From: an uncultured Nitrososphaeraceae archaeon
GTDB lineage: Archaea > Thermoproteota > Nitrososphaeria > Nitrososphaerales > Nitrososphaeraceae
Length of the DNA stretch: 23,690 nucleotides
Assembly: GCA_963729045.1 (NCBI GenBank)
Contig: CAVSMN010000022.1
Location: 1-23,690, forward strand
Reading direction: 5' to 3'
Shown here: positions 152-13,043 of the stretch, piece by piece
Numbering within the stretch: position 1 is the first letter of the stretch
Layout of the letters: each line of letters begins with the position of its first letter
The notes under the pieces: generated by a model
What the model was told of the DNA's origin: nothing
The model's input: the letters and a program-made list of their open reading frames with translations, nothing else
Database searches by the model: none
Program-made: the position numbers and the translations under genes

Positions 152-1381
152 TTATTCCCATATATTTTCCTTGAAAGTCCATTTTTTATTAAATAAGAAA
201 TTGCTAACTGATGCTATTGTGACTCCTATTAAGAGTGAAACATCATATGGAACACCTGATTCTCTAAGCATATAAATTGACAAAAACTGTATTAGGATGC
301 CTAATGAACTACATCCAACGAACATTCCGTATTGTCTAATAAATCGGGTCAAATTGACATTTTTGTCTTCAAAAGTCCAGAATTTGTTTAATAAGAAATT
401 AGTGGTTACTGAAACTGCTATCCCGACTGCAGTGGCTTGTAAATATCCAAAGCTTCCCAAGATTCCATTTGATAAAAGAATTGATACCAAATAATTCAAA
501 ACAAAGCCGCTAGCTCCTACCGTATAGAACCTGGCCGCCTTTGAAATAAATCGAACCGATTTTCTCTTTTCTAATTGAGTGTTTTGTTTCTTAGATTTCC
601 TTCCATATCGATAGAGTTTCCAAACTGCCTTAACATAATCTAAAATTATTGGAAAGCTAAGTTTACTCTGTCCGTATTTTCGATCCTTAAAGGTATAGGG
701 TATCTCTTTTACCTTGATAGTGTTTTTCTTCTTTATTAAAATTTCTAACAGTATCTTAAACCCGTCAGTATTAAATTCTATGTCGTGAAGTGTATGCTTT
801 GGAAAGGCAAAAAAGCCTGACATCGGATCATAAATGTTTTTTAAACACAATCCATGTCTAGCAATAAAATTTGCTCCAGCACTAAGCAAGAATCTCTTAA
901 AGGGCATCCCCTTGATAGCCCCACCTGTAATATATCTAGAACCAATGATGATGCAATTAGGTTCCTTCTTTAGCTCTGATATCATTCTATTTATTACCTC
1001 TGGAGGATGTGAAAAATCTGCGTCCATAATTAGGACATTTTGTCCCTCACTTGTACTGATTCCGTTCACAAGGGCCGAGATCAAGCCCGTCTTTTCTTTT
1101 CTATGAACTACCTTAATTGAGATGTCTTGTACCGATTTGTCTCTAGGTAAAGTGCTCATGTTAGATTCAATATATTTTTCGACTATTAGACCAGTCCCGT
1201 CAGGAGAGTTATCGTCTACTATTATGATTTCTACATTAGTTCCTGAAGGTATATTTGATTGAATTTGATTAAGTAATTCCTTAATATTCCTAGATTCGTT
1301 ATAAGTAGGTATGATGATAGATACAAATTTTTTAAATTCTGTGGTTTTTGGTATGGTATCATTTACATTTAGCATCGTCAT
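152..1381 (-). CDS. GT2 polyprenol/dolichol-phosphate mannosyltransferase-like protein fused to a C-terminal GtrA-like membrane domain
   Basis: SIIIPTYNE, IIIVDDNSPDGT, MDADFSHPPE, GSRY, DPMSGFF and GFKILLE motifs of DPM1-like GT2. The C-terminal ~130 aa has four hydrophobic segments and twin NFLLNKFWTF/NFLFNKKWTF motifs typical of GtrA. Confidence 0.9.
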   Translation of the reverse strand: MTMLNVNDTIPKTTEFKKFVSIIIPTYNESRNIKELLNQIQSNIPSGTNVEIIIVDDNSPDGTGLIVEKYIESNMSTLPRDKSVQDISIKVVHRKEKTGLISALVNGISTSEGQNVLIMDADFSHPPEVINRMISELKKEPNCIIIGSRYITGGAIKGMPFKRFLLSAGANFIARHGLCLKNIYDPMSGFFAFPKHTLHDIEFNTDGFKILLEILIKKKNTIKVKEIPYTFKDRKYGQSKLSFPIILDYVKAVWKLYRYGRKSKKQNTQLEKRKSVRFISKAARFYTVGASGFVLNYLVSILLSNGILGSFGYLQATAVGIAVSVTTNFLLNKFWTFEDKNVNLTRFIRQYGMFVGCSSLGILIQFLSIYMLRESGVPYDVSLLIGVTIASVSNFLFNKKWTFKENIWE

Positions 1382-1813: not shown

Positions 1814-3031
1814 TTATTTTTCATCAATGTTGAATTGTTGTAATAACCTCGGACTATCTACAACAAGATCATGAAATTTATCTATCTCAATAGTCTTAAT
1901 CGGATCCATCAAGATAATTTGATTATTCGATTTGACATTACTAAGACTATCTTTTTGCTGCAACATGAGTAAATGATTTTTTATATCTGTAGTAATATCA
2001 GTATTGCAAATTTTACTATTATTAATTACATTAAGGGACTCTTGAAGCATTCCTTGAATATGTTCATTTCCTTTATTTTCATGGAAGTGAGGGTTTCTTG
2101 TTTCAACCTGAAATATTTCTACACCATGCTGTCCGATATCAAATGATTTATTGGAAATAATGCCTCCATATTTTTCTAAAATATTAATTAGTTCATATGG
2201 TTCTACTGAATATCCACTAGAGAATTCTAAGTTTTCTGCAAGCGACATAGAAAGTGAGTGTTCTCCAGCATTTCCTGTAGTAATGATATCTCTCTCATAT
2301 CCGGTAATATAGGAGATCAAGTCATTTAGGTATTTGTTACTGTGTTCAGATATTCTTCCCCATTTCGGAAAATATACTTTGTTGTTTGCTATTTTTGGTT
2401 TAGAGTGCCAGCATATTCTTACATTACACAAAGGAGAATTCGACATAGCAAAACCCGCTGCAAAAATCTTGATGTACTCATTCACTGCTCCAGGAAAATA
2501 ATTGTCACTGTCTACAAACCCTACATACTCTTTCTTAAGCAATTTGGATAACAAGATCCCTATTATCATTCCTTCTGCTTTGCCTTGACGAACTTGATTG
2601 TTGAGATCCAAAATTGAAGGGTAATTAATCTTGTGGAAAATTCTACTAAGGTTGGGATCCGTTTGATGTATTGTAACAATCCTTTTGTTTGAAAACAGAG
2701 AATACTGCTTAACCATTTCTACTTCCATAGCATATTTGTCAACGGGATGTCTTTGGCTGTTTGATACTATGATTATTAGACATTCGTTAGGAATACCACT
2801 TAAAACACCTTCCAATAGACTCAATTTTTCATCCTTAACTGGAATCACTACTGCCATGGCTTGAAATATCTTTGATAATGTGTTACTGTCAAATGCAATG
2901 GTCGAACTGTTAAGCTCCTGCGAAGTGGTACTAAAATCATGTCCCGAATCTATTTCATATATTTTTTGAAGTGAGTGAATCTTTACAGCACCTATAGTTT
3001 CAGTATATTTAGGTGGAAAATCTAACCTCAT
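1814..3031 (-). CDS. mpgS: Mannosyl-3-phosphoglycerate synthase (GT55)
   Basis: MRLDFPPKYTETIGAVKIH N-terminus, LLEGVLSGIP, GKAEGMIIG, YVGFVDSDNYFPGAVNEY, WGRISE, TGNAGEH and ETRNPHFHE match MpgS/MngA. Confidence 0.92.
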   Translation of the reverse strand: MRLDFPPKYTETIGAVKIHSLQKIYEIDSGHDFSTTSQELNSSTIAFDSNTLSKIFQAMAVVIPVKDEKLSLLEGVLSGIPNECLIIIVSNSQRHPVDKYAMEVEMVKQYSLFSNKRIVTIHQTDPNLSRIFHKINYPSILDLNNQVRQGKAEGMIIGILLSKLLKKEYVGFVDSDNYFPGAVNEYIKIFAAGFAMSNSPLCNVRICWHSKPKIANNKVYFPKWGRISEHSNKYLNDLISYITGYERDIITTGNAGEHSLSMSLAENLEFSSGYSVEPYELINILEKYGGIISNKSFDIGQHGVEIFQVETRNPHFHENKGNEHIQGMLQESLNVINNSKICNTDITTDIKNHLLMLQQKDSLSNVKSNNQIILMDPIKTIEIDKFHDLVVDSPRLLQQFNIDEK

Positions 3032-4969: not shown

Positions 4970-6748
4970 ATGTTTCATAGATCAAAACTATTGATTTCTT
5001 TTTTCGCTATATCTTTGATTTTACTTTCTACTATAACTTCTTCATATGTTCAGGTTTCTTATGGGGCTTATGCTAAAGCCCCTTTATCCCCAACTGGACC
5101 GACAGTTAACGATGATACCCTTACGGTTGAAAAAATAGCTGATGGTTTGGATTTTCCTACCAGTATGGCGTTTCTGGGTCCTAATGATATTCTAGTCACT
5201 GAGAAAACTACGGGTAAAGTGATGCGAGTTACAAACGGTTTTGTATTGCCTCAACCTGTACTTGATGTACCAGTAGCAAATGCAATAGAACGCGGCTTAC
5301 TAGGAATAGCCGTTTCAAAGCAACCTGACGGCAAAACTTATGTATTTCTATCTTATACTGAATCAGGCGATGGTGTAGATGGCAGTGATGTTGATGCTCT
5401 TGTAGATCCATTAGGAAATCGATTATATCGTTATGAATTTGTTGATGGTAAATTGATAAATCCAGTATTATTATTGGATTTAACCGCAATTCCTATAAAT
5501 GGTAGAGGTGAGCACAATGGTGGTAAAATTCGAATTGGCCCTGATAATAATGTCTACTATTTTATAGGGGAAGTCGGAGGTCACAGAACCCAGGCCCAAA
5601 ATATAATAGCTGGGCCTGCCCCGAATGGTCTAGGAGGCGTACTTCGAATCACTCAAGACGGTGGTATAGTAGATCCCGGTGATCCAATATTTGGTGAAGG
5701 GTTGCCTCTTAATGTATATTATGCAATGGGCATTCGAAACAGTTTTGGCATGGATTTCGATCCATCTAACAGGCAATCTTTGGGATACAGAAAATGGACC
5801 AGTACACCGGCGATGAAATAAATCTTGTTTTTCCTGGATTTAATAGTGGTTGGTTTCAAATCCAGGGCTATGTGGACAAGGATTTATTAGAACATGGTAC
5901 CACAGAAGCAGATTTGGTATATTTTGGAAAAAGTCAATATGCTGATCCAAAGTTTGTGTGGGATACGACAATAGGTGTGACAGCCCTTAAATTCTTAAAT
6001 TCACATAGACTTGGAAATCAATTTGCAAACAATATGTTTGTAGGTGATATCAATAATGGCTTGTTGTATAGATTTACACTGAACGAAGACCGGGACGCTA
6101 TTTTTGTAAATGATACTTATGTTGGTAATACAGGATTATTAGAAGATAATGAAGTAGATGAACCTAAAGAAAATCAGCCTCTGATCTTTGGACAAGGTTT
6201 CGGGGGAATAACCGATATTCAGGTAGGTCCAGATGGTTACTTGTATATTTTAAGTTACACTGGATCAATTTATAGAATATTGCCTATATCTGATAGCATT
6301 GAACCAAAGTCTCAGCCAAGCTCACCTCCAAGCTCCCCTCCACAAAATGGTACTTTCAACTTCCAAGTCCGTTTCGGCAGTCATTTTGGGAATAGACGGT
6401 GATAATTCCTATTCACCAGAACCTATCGAGATTGAATCTGGACAAACAGTAACGTGGATTAATGGAGATACCATATCTCATACGGTAACCTCTGGACAAG
6501 ATGGTGACTTGGATGAGGGCACTCTATTTGATTCTGATGCTATAATTCCAAATCAGTCATATAGTCTGACATTTGATAGTCCTGGAGAATTCGACTATTA
6601 TTGTATATATCACCCCACTATGGTTGGCGAAGTAATAGTGAATGGACCAGATACATCTTCACCTACATCAGAAGATTCCCCAGATGAAGAGTCAGATGAG
6701 GAAGATAGGATGATTGAAAATATGGATCCATTTGGATTTCTCAAGTAA
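4970..6748 (+). CDS. Secreted PQQ-dependent sugar dehydrogenase (sGDH/Asd-like) fused to a C-terminal type-1 cupredoxin domain; three apparent +1 frameshifts (~5765, ~5802, ~6355); about 591 aa rebuilt
   Basis: GLDFPTSMAF, ERGLLGIA, GEHNGG and GIRNSFGMDFDP motifs. Removing bases near 5765 and 5802 restores FDPLTGNLWDTENGPYTGDEIN. GGITDIQVGPDGYLY follows. After a Pro/Ser linker come TVTWINGD.ISHTVT and YYCIYHPTMVG (His/Cys/His/Met copper ligands). Confidence 0.8.
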
Positions 6749-9235: not shown

Positions 9236-9673
9236 ATGAAGAACATTATCTTCCTGAAATCAGCAATCATATCCATGCTTTTTGTAACATTTGGTATAAC
9301 TTTTGGAGGGTGGACATCAAACAATGAAGTTTCCGCTCAATCTAATAATCAAGAAAATAGCCAGGTACTTGCTGAATTGATCGCAAATTTAACCCAAGCA
9401 CAAAATACTGTATCAACTAGTAATTCAACAGTATCAACCGCTCAACTAACTGCAATAATAGGGGAACTTTCTGATATTCTCGGTAAAATTACAACAGATA
9501 ACGATGGTCAATATTTAGATGAACATACTCACTTCTTTACTCACAACGGTCATACTCATACCGTGACCCATACTCATCCTCATCATGCAGATCATCATAG
9601 TCATCATCAGAGCTGGACTGAAAAACATCATATATTTGATCCCAGTAATTGCAAACCAGGTAGAATGTGTTAA
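9236..9673 (+). CDS. Secreted protein with a His-rich C-terminus, putative metal-binding
   Basis: Signal peptide ending VSAQ, a helical middle, 15 His between EH and KHH, and terminal CKPGRMC. A T8 tract follows at 9702-9709. Confidence 0.8.
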   Translation: MKNIIFLKSAIISMLFVTFGITFGGWTSNNEVSAQSNNQENSQVLAELIANLTQAQNTVSTSNSTVSTAQLTAIIGELSDILGKITTDNDGQYLDEHTHFFTHNGHTHTVTHTHPHHADHHSHHQSWTEKHHIFDPSNCKPGRMC

Positions 9674-9709: not shown

Positions 9710-10003
9710 CCTGTTGTGAAATATTTATCATTTAATGGTTTTCGTTAGATGTCGTAGCAGTATATTGATATTTTATTTAATAACCTTAACCTCATTGCGT
9801 TCCTTAGTCCATCATCAGGAGATATTTATTTGTTCGATAGACGAGTAGGACCGATTAATAGCTGGATTAGGGTTAATGGCTTTAGAAAACATTTGTTGAT
9901 AAGCTCTAATGATGCCCTCTTAGGTATCTGATATGTGATATACATTAAATTCAATCATACAGTTCTTGTCAGTAAGTCTTGATAACAAAATAAAGTCAAA
10001 CTG

Positions 10004-10029
10004 TGACCAATTTAAACCGAACTTGGTCA
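10004..10029 (+). promoter_or_regulatory. Inverted repeat TGACCAA-N12-TTGGTCA enclosing a TATA-like TTTAAA upstream of the proteasome operon
   Basis: TGACCAA 10004-10010, TTTAAA 10011-10016, TTGGTCA 10023-10029. The beta ATG is at 10065. Confidence 0.55.
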
Positions 10030-10064
10030 ATAAATTCGACCATTCTCTATAATACTATAACAAA

Positions 10065-10648
10065 ATGACTACCATAATAGGAATTAAAACAACTGAGGGA
10101 GTAGGTACTTGCATCTGATAAACGAGCCAGTAAGGGTTTCTTTATAGGATCCAGAGATCGTACAAAAGATTTCTAAAATAGATGATACTCTTGCAATTGC
10201 TATTGCAGGACAGTTATCTGATGCAGAACATTTAATCAAAATTACTGCAGCGGAGAGAAAATTGATAGAACTACGGAGGGGATTTCCATTGAGTGTAAAA
10301 GAATCTTCAAGACTAATCGCAAATCTCGCCTACTCGGGGCTAAAGAATTATCAACCATATTACGTCGAGTTACTAGTAGCAGGCGTAGATACCAGCGGAT
10401 CACATGTAAATGTTGCAGATATGAGTGGTGCGATTACAAATGAAGATTATGCTGCATCAGGTTCGGGAGCCCCCATAGCTTATGGAGTTCTTGAAAGCCT
10501 TTACCATTTTGATATTACAAACGACGAAGCAAAGGAAATTGCTAAAAAGGCTGTTGCAGCGGCTATGGAACGAGACCCCGGCTCTGGCAACGGGATAGAT
10601 GTTTTAGTCATACCAAAATTGGTAGCAGCCGAACGGGTTGTATTATAA
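10065..10648 (+). CDS. psmB: 20S proteasome beta subunit without a propeptide; two apparent +1 frameshifts (~10104, ~10153-10156); about 193 aa rebuilt
   Basis: Rebuilt N-terminus MTTIIGIKTTEGVVLASDKRASKGFFIGSxIVQKISKIDDTLAIAIAG places Thr1, Asp17, Lys33 and Gly47 at canonical spacing. It then joins the 10262 ORF with ELLVAGVD, ASGSG and ERDPGSG. Confidence 0.88.
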
Positions 10649-10669
10649 GGAGTAGGAAGATAACAGAAA

Positions 10670-11362
10670 ATGTCTGAAGATAATAATTCTGCAGGTTCTC
10701 CTTATAGTTTTGGGAATAACAGTAGATATCCATACTACTATGGACAAGGTGGTCGCCTGGTACTAGTAGATAATGCTCTAGAGGCGGTAAATAAGGGTTC
10801 AACAACTATTGGGTTAAAAACTCCAGAATTCGCCCTCATTTCAAGTCATATCAAACCCACTTTGCCCTTAGTGGATCCTAATGAAAAAATATTTGTAATT
10901 GATAAGCACATAGGAGCGACTGGAGCAGGCTATATTGCAGATATAGAACATTTAATAGAAGAAATAAGGTTACAAGGACAGAAACATCGCATTTCATATG
11001 ATAGCTCTATCGACATAAGATCTATCACAAAACATCTAAGTACTTATTTACACAATTACACAATTTATGCTGTAAGACCACAAGCGGCTTCAATAATCAT
11101 TGCTGGCGTAGATGAAAATGGGATACATTTGTACCGAGTTGACCCCAGTGGAACTTATTTGAAAGGAGGTGGGTTTGCAATAGGTCACTCTTCCGATGTG
11201 GCACTAGATGTGATTCAAAAAGGCTATGACACAAATATGAATATTGAACAGGCATTGAAATTGTCAAATGAAGCTATAGAAAAAGCAATCGGAGAAAAAC
11301 CGGTAGTTGAGTCGGGGATAGTTACGTCAAAAGGATTTACAAAATTAAGAAAGGAACTCTAA
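10670..11362 (+). CDS. psmA: 20S proteasome alpha subunit, divergent N-terminal gate
   Basis: GRL...ALEAVNKGSTTIGLK, EKIFVIDKHIG, GYIAD, VRP, IIAGVD, LYRVDPSG and AIG motifs. It starts 21 nt after the beta stop, with GGAG at 10649-10652. Confidence 0.9.
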   Translation: MSEDNNSAGSPYSFGNNSRYPYYYGQGGRLVLVDNALEAVNKGSTTIGLKTPEFALISSHIKPTLPLVDPNEKIFVIDKHIGATGAGYIADIEHLIEEIRLQGQKHRISYDSSIDIRSITKHLSTYLHNYTIYAVRPQAASIIIAGVDENGIHLYRVDPSGTYLKGGGFAIGHSSDVALDVIQKGYDTNMNIEQALKLSNEAIEKAIGEKPVVESGIVTSKGFTKLRKEL

Positions 11363-11429
11363 CATAATGTGATGTTGATACCTTGATATCAATCAATTCA
11401 TTATACGTGGTAATGATTCCTAAACACAA

Positions 11430-11436
11430 TTTTTTT
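11430..11436 (+). terminator. Oligo-T terminator candidate for the proteasome operon
   Basis: T7 run downstream of the alpha stop. Confidence 0.3.
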
Positions 11437-11570
11437 GTTATTTTATTCAAAACCTGCAGGTCCAAAACGCACAAAAAAATAGATTGATTATTTGAAATCT
11501 TGTACCTTATAATATCTTAATTCCCAGTTTAGGTGCAAGTCCTAACAAAATGAGTTTGATATTTCGTCAA

Positions 11571-12426
11571 TTATTTCCTATTATGCGAAAATTTAATGTC
11601 ATTAGTGTAAACAGGAGTGTATTCCTTTTCTGGTATAACTTCTTCAAGTAAGTTCTCTTGCAGAATTTTTATTATTTCCTCAATTATCCTGTTTGAGTAA
11701 TACATAGCTTCCACTTTCTCACTATCAGATAACGGCATCGGATTCTACAATAATATATTCTGACAAAATATTAACATTAATCTGAAATATTTTATTGTTG
11801 CTGTTTTTGTCTACTACTATCCATTGAAGTCTAAAACCTGTTTCTTTTTTTATCATGCCGAACCATCTTAATTTGCCAAACCATTTCCCGGTTAAATGAT
11901 CCACTATGGGTTCGATGTTACCCTTTACAGGCATATATATCTGGATTAATTGCTTATATTTTCTAAGTTTTTTTGATTTATCTATTTCTAGCTCTTCATT
12001 TAAAAGATTATCTTCTAATATTTGATTGAAGTTATACACACTACCTTCAACCAACTTGTACCCTGATGATGTTTTCTCAATTAGGTTCAAGTCCAAAAGT
12101 CTCTTTAAAGCCCTTGATAGACTTTGTTGGTGAATATCAAGTTTTCTCTCGAGAGCCTTAAATGAATATGTTGACCACATTTCTTTTCGTAGCAAAGATA
12201 GAATTTTCTTGTCGTTATTACGAACATCATTGATAGCTATTGTAAGCTCCTCATCATCAATATGAGGGTCCGTTTTCTGTTTTGAATTTAATGAAAAGTA
12301 ATTATAACCTATTTTTAAATTAGTTGTCTGATTTGGAATTATGTGATCAGCGTGAAGAAGTTCCGCATAGTTTTGAAAATTATCACGATTACTAGATTCA
12401 GGCAGTGGTAACAATAACTTTGTCAT
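11571..12426 (-). CDS. Winged helix-turn-helix domain protein; apparent +1 frameshift near 11730 hides a ~52-aa C-terminus
   Basis: wHTH-like YSFKALERKLDIHQQSLSRALKRLLDLNLIEKT. After ESDAV a shifted frame continues SDSEKVEAMYYSNRIIEEIIKILQENLLEE...HNRK to a stop at 11571. Confidence 0.7.
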
Positions 12427-13043
12427 TTGCAATTTTAGTTCAACCTCTTGCCTAGAGACGGAGATAATTTTACAAGAGTTGATGTCGAAATTTTCCCAGA
12501 AATAAATTTTATTTTATTAATAGATAATTCTTTCCTCAATTCCATGAGTTATATATCGATTAATCCGCTTAAATACTTATTTCAAAGACCATTTTATCTA
12601 GGAGTCATGATCAAGTTTTATGGCTCATTTTCATAGTACTGAAAATATAGACAAAAATGATTAAGGTACAAAAAGTAGTACAAATTAAACAATAGAGCGT
12701 TGTTTGGTTTCCACTGAAATTTTATTGATCCCTTTGTATTTACTAACGAGATTCGCAGAACCCATCTAAACAAATAAATGAATGGAATTAACCTGGTATT
12801 TCAATTTAATCACTGACCTAAAATTATTCATGAGTTTCATCAAGTCATAATGTTTTTCAATATATTCACATACGGTAAACCTTGTTACTGAGCTAAAACA
12901 TTTCGTAACTTTATATCTCTATTTGTTGATCTATCTGGTAGAAAATTTCTGTGCTTACAACGATTATTATTAAAAAAATCTAAATTTGGTAACGAGAAAT
13001 ACTAGTATATAGTAACTAGGTGAGCAAACAAATTGGTAAGGAA

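Follow-up and report, generated by a model that had tools for sequence, protein, structure and literature searches.

The 23,690-base contig C22 of an uncultured Nitrososphaeraceae archaeon (GenBank assembly GCA_963729045.1, contig CAVSMN010000022.1), which was analysed over its whole length and is referred to here as the window, carries genes for a second, non-canonical pair of 20S proteasome subunits: a catalytic beta-type subunit, beta2, and a divergent alpha-type subunit, alpha2. The pair stands beside the housekeeping proteasome genes of the same genome, as a preliminary description made from the letters of the window had proposed, and it forms a separate, syntenic lineage. It is accompanied by a gene for a winged-helix regulator, F1, and by an invariant palindrome in the beta2 promoter, both of which are new in this analysis. 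Together, F1, beta2 and alpha2 probably make up a regulon for a second 20S-type core in terrestrial ammonia-oxidizing archaea. Judged from the genes, alpha2 and beta2 would, on balance, form a particle of their own.

A beta2–alpha2 pair beside the housekeeping genes

The beta2 gene occupies positions 10065–10648 of the forward strand, with its start ATG at 10065 and its stop codon at 10646–10648, and is spread over three frames in the window, as discussed below. It is followed on the same strand by an intact alpha2 gene of 230 codons at 10670–11362. Both proteins match the proteasome family PF00227 in profile searches. The 21-nucleotide (nt) spacer at 10649–10669 can be read directly from the sequence and contains GGAG at 10649–10652, as described previously, and AGGAAG at 10654–10659. 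The preliminary description had placed the operon at 10004–11362, which is correct for the end of alpha2; its start, on the other hand, falls inside the promoter palindrome at 10003–10030, upstream of the beta2 ATG.

The assembly consists of 22 contigs, totals 2.85 Mb and is 87% complete. A search of this genome with PF00227 returned a canonical alpha gene with the GYDR motif on contig C12 and two canonical beta genes with propeptides on contigs C1 and C14. The other matches belong to the two copies of the pair, on C22 and C20, and to a divergent beta-like gene on C10. The housekeeping alpha and beta genes are unlinked, lying on three different contigs, which is what the preliminary description had expected of archaea. 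Its companion expectation, that psmA often resides in the exosome/ribosomal superoperon, is not borne out here: the canonical alpha gene is found outside any exosome operon, next to genes for SAICAR synthetase, a DUF371 protein, a peroxiredoxin-like protein and an RNA methyltransferase. One alpha, two betas and a single copy of the pair make up the set in each of four relatives with single-contig genomes.

Among 301 genomes of the class Nitrososphaeria, including three flagged as unpublished (G169, G261 and G313), alpha2 was found in 55 and beta2 in 54, every one of the latter being alpha2-positive. No alpha2-negative genome in this set yielded beta2, and in the sole alpha2-positive genome in which beta2 was not found, alpha2 lies at a contig end. 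By genus, alpha2 is present in 7/8, 14/14, 25/26 and 2/3 genomes of four genera, and in 0/67 and 0/20 genomes of two large genera of the Nitrosopumilaceae (family f13). Closer to the window, orthologues occur in 16 of 24 other genomes of the same genus and, within the order, in 3 of 16 further families that were sampled. When 185,579 species genomes were scanned, the best 80 of 173 relatives all came from the Nitrososphaerales; these 80 are the named loci referred to below, some counts being made on subsets of 67 or 73. Named carriers include Ca. Nitrosocosmicus (N. agrestis among them), Nitrososphaera, Ca. Nitrosotalea devanaterra and Ca. Nitrosopolaris. Public annotations of the genes are generic (“proteasome alpha subunit”, “hypothetical protein”, “MarR family regulator”). 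At E below 1e-30, alpha2 matched 16 of 1.84 billion representatives, mostly fragments. A full-text literature search, which did not cover subscription journals or supplementary tables, found no paper on a second proteasome in ammonia-oxidizing archaea.

The order of the two genes is constant. Beta2 lies directly 5′ of alpha2 at all 12 fetched loci and upstream of it at 79 of the 80 named loci, the exception being one without upstream DNA. In genera other than Nitrosocosmicus, the two genes are separated by only about 0–3 nt or overlap (L023–L029, L031 and L032), and in most genera they are translationally coupled. In a joint tree of 124 rows, built by a quick method, the beta2 sequences form one clade (Shimodaira–Hasegawa-like approximate likelihood ratio test (SH-aLRT) 100, stem length 1.05), whose position relative to the two canonical beta clades the tree does not settle. 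The alpha2 sequences, together with the representative P0121, form another (SH-aLRT 99), apart from the canonical alphas of the class. Alpha2 groups with the alphas and not with the betas; both clades are long-stemmed, and their internal groupings agree. When alpha2 was forced to group with the canonical alphas of the class in a 51-row subset, the resulting tree was rejected by the approximately unbiased (AU) test (p-AU 0.010), the tested group having been chosen after the tree was seen and the branches being long. The pair forms a co-occurring clade of its own with conserved adjacency in a defined subset of the Nitrososphaeria, and neither subunit nests within the housekeeping clades.

Beta2 has the complete catalytic set of an archaeal beta subunit. 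The intact copy on C20 scores 161.3 bits on PF00227, and the window copy, translated across one stop, scores 126.4 bits. By alignment, residue 2 corresponds to Thr1 of the mature A. fulgidus beta subunit (1j2q_H), and Thr1, Asp17, Lys33, Gly47, Ser129, Asp166 and Ser169 are kept in 13/13 aligned orthologues; Thr1, Asp17 and Lys33 are present at 67/67 named loci. The start codon directly precedes Thr-Thr at all 73 loci that hold the 5′ end (69 ATG, two of which head genes broken further downstream, two TTG and two GTG), and none of these 73 has a propeptide. In the genome of the window, both housekeeping betas do carry propeptides, which end in Gly or Ala. The best solved relatives of beta2 are archaeal 20S chains (E 3e-36). 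On the archaeal beta model TIGR03634 it reaches 204.6 bits (scored in a frame with a 10-residue offset) against an NCBIfam equivalog cut-off of 224; the housekeeping betas, at 218.5 and 217.6 bits, fall short as well, and this cut-off therefore does not discriminate. Scores are far lower on the bacterial beta model TIGR03690 (72.4 bits, cut-off 191.9) and on the HslV models NF003964 and TIGR03692 (23.8 and 21.2 bits, cut-offs 137 and 157.75). The catalytic Thr also directly follows the start Met in Anbu, where removal of that Met by methionine aminopeptidase is inferred from crystal structures and mass spectra (PMC5666114). By analogy, Thr1 of beta2 would be freed by methionine aminopeptidase rather than by propeptide autolysis.

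Alpha2 matches PF00227 with 136.7 bits, and its best solved relatives are likewise archaeal 20S chains (E about 1e-28), although the alignment to solved alphas starts only at residue 24. An alpha-type N-terminal helix precedes the proteasome domain, and GRLVLVDNALEAV aligns with that segment of the canonical alphas. In place of the canonical segment, alpha2 proteins have the pattern R(Y/F)P(Y)(F/Y)YG(P/Q)xGRLVLVD(S/N)A. The gate residues Tyr8-Asp9-Arg10 and Tyr26 are named here in the T. acidophilum numbering. YDR is found in none of 72 alpha2 sequences, with Arg alone kept in 68, and all 72 have S or N in place of Tyr26; alpha2 retains Arg10 and Gly19 and has lost Tyr8, Asp9 and Tyr26. Further along, it reads RPQAA for the canonical RPFG, with a one-residue deletion, and its C-terminus is about 20 residues shorter. 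On the archaeal alpha models NF003075 and TIGR03633 it scores 154.2 and 147.7 bits (cut-offs 219 and 287.35), as against 317.3 and 290.2 bits for the canonical alpha of the same genome. Both subunits deviate in maturation or gating features, beta2 by the missing propeptide and alpha2 by the missing gate residues, in line with the preliminary description.

That description had also considered a perhaps stress-induced or ATPase-independent particle. The Lys of EKIF (K73 in the window protein) is invariant in 14/14 aligned alpha2 sequences; its counterpart in canonical alphas is the Lys of QKIF/EKIF. K73 is presumably equivalent to Lys66 (T. acidophilum numbering), the pocket lysine that receives the C-termini of activators. 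Its retention argues against simple ATPase independence, and docking of Cdc48-type unfoldases with Tyr-X ends on an alpha2 ring is possible from the aligned residues.

The beta-then-alpha order is that of actinobacterial prcBA operons, and the distribution within the Nitrososphaeria is patchy, both of which would fit an acquisition of the pair from bacteria. The likeness noted in the preliminary description holds for gene order and not for sequence. Beta2 falls far below the cut-off of the bacterial beta model while scoring well on the archaeal one, and at E up to 0.001 alpha2 matched archaeal alpha and beta models only, the bacterial alpha model TIGR03691 not being listed. The closest solved structures are archaeal and eukaryotic subunits, the best 80 loci of the species-wide scan are confined to the Nitrososphaerales, and no Pup-, Mpa- or PafA-like family was seen among the cross-genus neighbours (no genome-wide search for these was made). 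A bacterial origin is thus very improbable.

A more serious alternative is that alpha2 and beta2 mix into the housekeeping 20S as alternative subunits, giving hybrid rings. Archaeal paralogous subunits are known to co-assemble, as in the alpha1/alpha2 proteasomes of Haloferax, and on TIGR03634 beta2 scores nearly as high as the housekeeping betas. However, the co-occurrence of beta2 with alpha2 is strict, the genes are coupled in translation in most genera and have a promoter element of their own, and both proteins sit on long stems, as expected if their contact surfaces had changed together. Mixing is accordingly considered unlikely, and a separate core made from matched subunits is the preferred interpretation.

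A few other observations concern proteasome components outside the pair. The beta-like gene on C10 (L008:1498–2271, corresponding to G000:C10:130933–131706) represents a fourth kind of gene of the proteasome family and encodes a 258-residue protein that starts with Met-Thr-Thr (MTTVISIK) and scores 63.9 bits on PF00227. It has several insertions, a long C-terminal tail and a very long branch in the tree (2.43), and no counterpart was found in the complete same-genus genome G205, where the best match is 21.4 bits. Elsewhere in the order, a genome that lacks the operon has two canonical-type alphas (L077 and L078; G036:C1:491050–492250 and 917600–918800) that are sisters in the tree (SH-aLRT 97); this is a different, lineage-specific alpha duplication. 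The genome of the window also encodes five Cdc48-type ATPase paralogues (G000:C1:74421, C10:22879, C11:62566, C14:31360 and C15:97197), which end in YYR, QYR, FYG, VEL and IMR, the first three with the penultimate Tyr of HbYX-like docking motifs.

Regulator F1 and the promoter palindrome

At the fetched loci, F1 is the only neighbouring family of real genes that is common across genera. In the window it lies at 11567–12432 on the reverse strand, convergent with the operon, and is split into open reading frames (ORFs) at 11725–12432 and 11571–11738; the intact copy on C20 encodes 287 residues. F1 is present in 55/55 alpha2-positive genomes of the class. It is on the same contig for 51 of 57 alpha2 copies, and of these 36 are within 2 kb and 46 within 5 kb. 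At five of the 12 fetched loci (L023, L024, L027, L028 and L029), the gene immediately precedes the operon on the same strand; Nitrosocosmicus and Nitrosotalea-type loci have it downstream, in convergent orientation.

The window F1 matches MarR_2 with 27.8 bits, just above the cut-off of 27. In the structural model, residues 60–140 or so superimpose on MarR-family structures (Z 10.1–11.2, rmsd 1.8–3.3 over 66–76 residues), and roughly 105 residues form a separate beta-alpha-beta4-alpha C-terminal domain (pLDDT 83.8). The N-terminal 65 residues are variable and have no confident modelled structure. For the C-terminal domain, no Foldseek hit was obtained at E up to 0.001, and the ESM Atlas gave none that was usable.

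The palindrome at 10003–10030 on the forward strand, GTGAC-N18-GTCAA, resembles an operator. GTGAC, GTCAA and the 18-nt spacing between them are invariant in 13/13 aligned beta2 upstream regions from at least five genera, and the inner arms often extend the symmetry (TGACCAA...TTGGTCA, TGACTAG...CTAGTCA). An A/T-rich, TATA-like box abuts the palindrome directly, 35 nt upstream of the beta2 ATG. The exact palindrome is found within 120 nt upstream of beta2 at 60 of 67 named loci and with one mismatch at five more. In the genome of the window, the strict form has three exact matches, compared to 1–5 in shuffled genomes: the two operon copies and one at C12:358707, which is taken as a chance match because it lies inside the coding region of a patatin-like gene.

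The palindrome is specific only in this strict form. The looser TGACY-N15-18-RGTCA occurs 26 times in the genome and 16–29 times in shuffles, and is no rarer than chance. The 300 nt upstream of hsp70 and of each of the five cdc48 genes contain no TGAC-N16-22-GTCA, and none of 13 one-mismatch sites that precede an ORF adjoins an hsp70- or cdc48-like gene. The hsp70 gene appears to be internal to an operon, and its real promoter may lie further upstream.

The duplicate contig and the broken reading frames

The window is collinear throughout with C20:102952–126617, at 87–99% identity per block and about 92% overall, and the intergenic stretches diverge more than the coding ones. Its span falls wholly within that of C20, and the identity rises toward the ends of C22. 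The C20 copy of the operon has an intact beta2 gene for 193 residues and an alpha2 that differs by two residues. Between the two contigs, beta2 codons show 18 synonymous and two non-synonymous differences (with the extra-base columns set aside) and alpha2 codons 10 and two. The predominance of synonymous changes indicates purifying selection on both copy lineages.

In the window, beta2 is interrupted by an extra base near 10103/10104 and another near 10154, so that its longest ORF has 128 codons (10262–10648). The protein reads MTTIIGIKTTEGV up to a stop, continues in the +1 frame as VLASDKRASKGFFIGSRD, and shifts by +1 again before IVQKISKIDD and the remainder. In the alignment to C20, the extra bases turn GTGGTA into GTAGGTA and AAG into AGAG on the window side. 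The bases at 10104 and 10154 are missing from the contigs of all four independent public sequencing runs (one RNA run and three DNA runs, each of the latter from a different study). No public run contains the window in full, the best share of sequence words being 0.75, but the contigs are up to 99.5% identical to it. The contig of run X1 covers 1889 nt with nine mismatches and exactly two gaps, which are the two extra bases of beta2. F1 has extra bases near 11730 and 11574; the one at 11730 is missing in runs X1 and X15, while run X4 lacks a base at 11728. Contigs of the RNA run cover beta2 at 10087–10485 and alpha2 plus F1 at 10735–12498. Since such contigs may include DNA, they are not counted as evidence of expression.

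Relative to C20, single-base indels on C22 break beta2, a GSDH-cupredoxin gene and F1. Conversely, single-base indels on C20 break a GT2 glycosyltransferase gene (409 residues on C22, 335 on C20), a mannosyl-3-phosphoglycerate (MPG) synthase gene (405 and 373 residues) and a Kelch gene. Indels of this kind on each contig relative to the other point to scattered consensus errors on both. C22 is probably a co-binned contig of a strain variant with consensus errors, and the frameshifts of beta2 and F1 are most likely consensus errors of this redundant contig.

Alternatively, the window could hold a true second paralogue within one genome that is in the course of decay, its frameshifts in beta2 and the regulator being real. 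Two collinear copies are present in one assembly, both beta2 and F1 are affected, and one other genome of the class, G322, also has two copies. Moreover, the extra bases are outside homopolymers and may therefore be a private, real mutation of the sampled strain. Nevertheless, synonymous changes predominate between the copies, the frames are intact in the contigs of all four runs, and C20 has broken genes of its own. In the class search, each of eight single-contig genomes has one copy of the pair, and two copies occur only in this assembly and in G322. C22 is wholly enclosed by C20 and more like it toward both ends, as in a strain bubble, and run X4 showed the C22-like form only, which is a weak hint in the same direction. 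Decay is therefore rated as quite unlikely. A broken beta2 does recur in some metagenome-assembled genomes, as the gene is in two or three frame pieces at two of the 80 named loci, L091 and L144.

Both shifts in beta2 are +1 and only about 50 nt apart, as might be seen if they were programmed ribosomal frameshifts. Yet the gene has a single frame in the C20 copy, in 12/12 fetched orthologues and in 71 of the 73 named loci with the 5′ end, and the extra bases are missing from the near-identical contigs of all four runs, RNA included. Programmed frameshifting is effectively refuted, and a strain-variant contig with consensus errors stays the explanation adopted here.

Some further features of these contigs may be recorded. 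The GSDH-cupredoxin gene encodes 455 residues on C20 and corresponds in the window to three ORFs, at 4970–5821, 5794–6402 and 6299–6748. The Kelch gene is split on C22 and C20 alike. Outside the duplicated region, the patatin-like gene on C12 (G000:C12:357893–359382, reverse strand) consists of two overlapping ORFs of 330 and 196 codons and may likewise be frameshifted. The MPG synthase gene (1814–3031 of the window, reverse strand; PF09488, 493 bits) adjoins the GT2/GtrA glycosyltransferase gene (152–1381, reverse strand); it is a gene for the compatible solute mannosylglycerate in a soil ammonia oxidizer.

Small proteins with signal-peptide-like N-termini flank the operon in the window. One of them, encoded at 9236–9673 on the forward strand, has 145 residues, a signal-peptide-like N-terminus and a His-rich C-terminus, HTHFFTHNGHTHTVTHTHPHHADHHSHH, and no Pfam match. 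Its family (F9) is kept directly upstream of the operon across Nitrosocosmicus loci, and the product may be a secreted metal-binding protein. The preliminary description had called this an accessory-looking region of secreted proteins. The secreted-like character of the flanking proteins is indeed seen; an accessory character is not, as the gene order is common to C20 and to the three other same-genus loci compared (L021, L022 and L030).

Proposed mechanism and known systems

If the module works as its parts suggest, rings of alpha2 and beta2 would assemble into a second 20S-type barrel beside the housekeeping one. The gate of this barrel would work differently and still dock the C-termini of Cdc48-type unfoldases. 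A dimer of F1 would bind the palindrome, whose half-sites are two helical turns apart and extend to the place where transcription factor B (TFB) and the TATA-binding protein (TBP) bind, and would gate the access of these factors. The operon would then be switched by a signal that the C-terminal domain of F1 reads.

A more detailed version of this scheme is put forward tentatively, in which terrestrial ammonia-oxidizing archaea would have a distinct class of archaeal proteasome. Here the regulon would be self-contained: F1, with its winged helix-turn-helix (wHTH) and a TBP-like or KA1-like domain, would release the operator, and the second 20S would be made on demand for proteotoxic soil conditions. 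The beta ring would mature without a propeptide and so need no autolysis templated by the alpha ring, and the alpha ring, without the Tyr8-Asp9-Tyr26 cluster, would be gated, or held open, by some other mechanism, one unseen in studied proteasomes.

Several points weigh against a dedicated regulon and core. Linkage and co-occurrence are all that suggests a separate alpha2/beta2 particle, and the binding of F1 to the palindrome is proposed through guilt by association. F1 homologues occur in 14 class genomes in which alpha2 was not found: 12 match weakly (E 1e-30 to 1e-54), and two match strongly, in genomes that are 95–96% complete. The palindrome was not seen upstream of F1, whose upstream regions share a different A/T-rich box, so that autoregulation of F1 through the same site is unsupported. 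The fold matches of its C-terminal domain are middling (TBP-like, KA1, COR and START-like; Z 7.8–8.8). The long stems of the alpha2 and beta2 clades leave their deep placement unsure, and the group used in the AU test was post hoc. Finally, the RNA contigs may include DNA, and the position of the extra bases outside homopolymers counts against taking them for consensus errors.

Archaeal proteasomes serve as the simple reference for 20S gate opening and beta maturation. The pair described here drops the YDR/Tyr26 gate cluster and the propeptide yet is under strong purifying selection, and it could show which parts of both mechanisms are dispensable. The module may also be a sign of a physiological difference that separates soil from marine ammonia oxidizers. 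It occurs in named taxa, some of them apparently cultured (Nitrosotalea devanaterra, Nitrosocosmicus agrestis, Nitrososphaera), and with a compact regulator–operator pair it is directly testable.

The closest solved relatives of both subunits are PsmA and PsmB of the canonical archaeal 20S (T. acidophilum 1pma, A. fulgidus 1j2q, M. jannaschii 3h4p). The features held in common are the PF00227 domain in both subunits, the catalytic set of beta2, and the N-terminal helix and Lys66 equivalent of alpha2. In contrast to the canonical subunits, beta2 lacks the propeptide and alpha2 the gate tyrosines and aspartate, the RPFG motif and the full-length C-terminus; and unlike the canonical genes on their three contigs, beta2 and alpha2 share one operon and a dedicated regulator.

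Extra alpha or beta paralogues beside the main set are also known from Haloferax volcanii (alpha1/alpha2) and from Pyrococcus and Thermococcus (beta1/beta2), where they may adjust the proteasome to growth phase or heat. Each of those paralogues is a single additional gene whose product has canonical gate and propeptide features and joins the main subunits in mixed particles. Here, by contrast, a matched alpha and beta are encoded together, both deviate, and they come with a promoter element and a regulator of their own.

Actinobacterial prcBA operons share the order of beta before alpha and, as in Rhodococcus, which has two operons, possibly two sets of core-particle genes per genome. Their betas have long propeptides, while beta2 has none; the pair does not belong to them by sequence, and its conserved neighbours include no Pup/Mpa/PafA-like family.

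Beta2 is similar to Anbu in the placement of the catalytic Thr directly after the start Met (PMC5666114). Anbu, however, is a single-subunit assembly without an alpha ring, whereas beta2 is paired with alpha2 and groups with the archaeal betas. On the model of HslV, a single-subunit protease related to Anbu, beta2 scores only 23.8 bits against a cut-off of 137.

A precedent for the regulatory part is CCTF1, an ArsR-type winged-helix factor that is reported to bind a palindrome in the pan promoter of Sulfolobales (PMC13736083). Both systems combine a winged-helix factor with a palindrome at the promoter of a proteasome component, CCTF1 being a precedent only for the putative binding by F1. CCTF1 controls an ATPase gene, while the presumed targets of F1 are the genes for core subunits, to which it is genomically linked. 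The families differ as well, F1 having a MarR-like wHTH and an alpha+beta C-terminal domain of roughly 105 residues instead of the ArsR type. It may also depart from typical MarR regulators, which dimerize through an all-helical domain made from the N- and C-terminal helices: in the F1 model, the C-terminal domain has the beta-alpha-beta4-alpha arrangement, and the N-terminal 65 residues are not confidently modelled.

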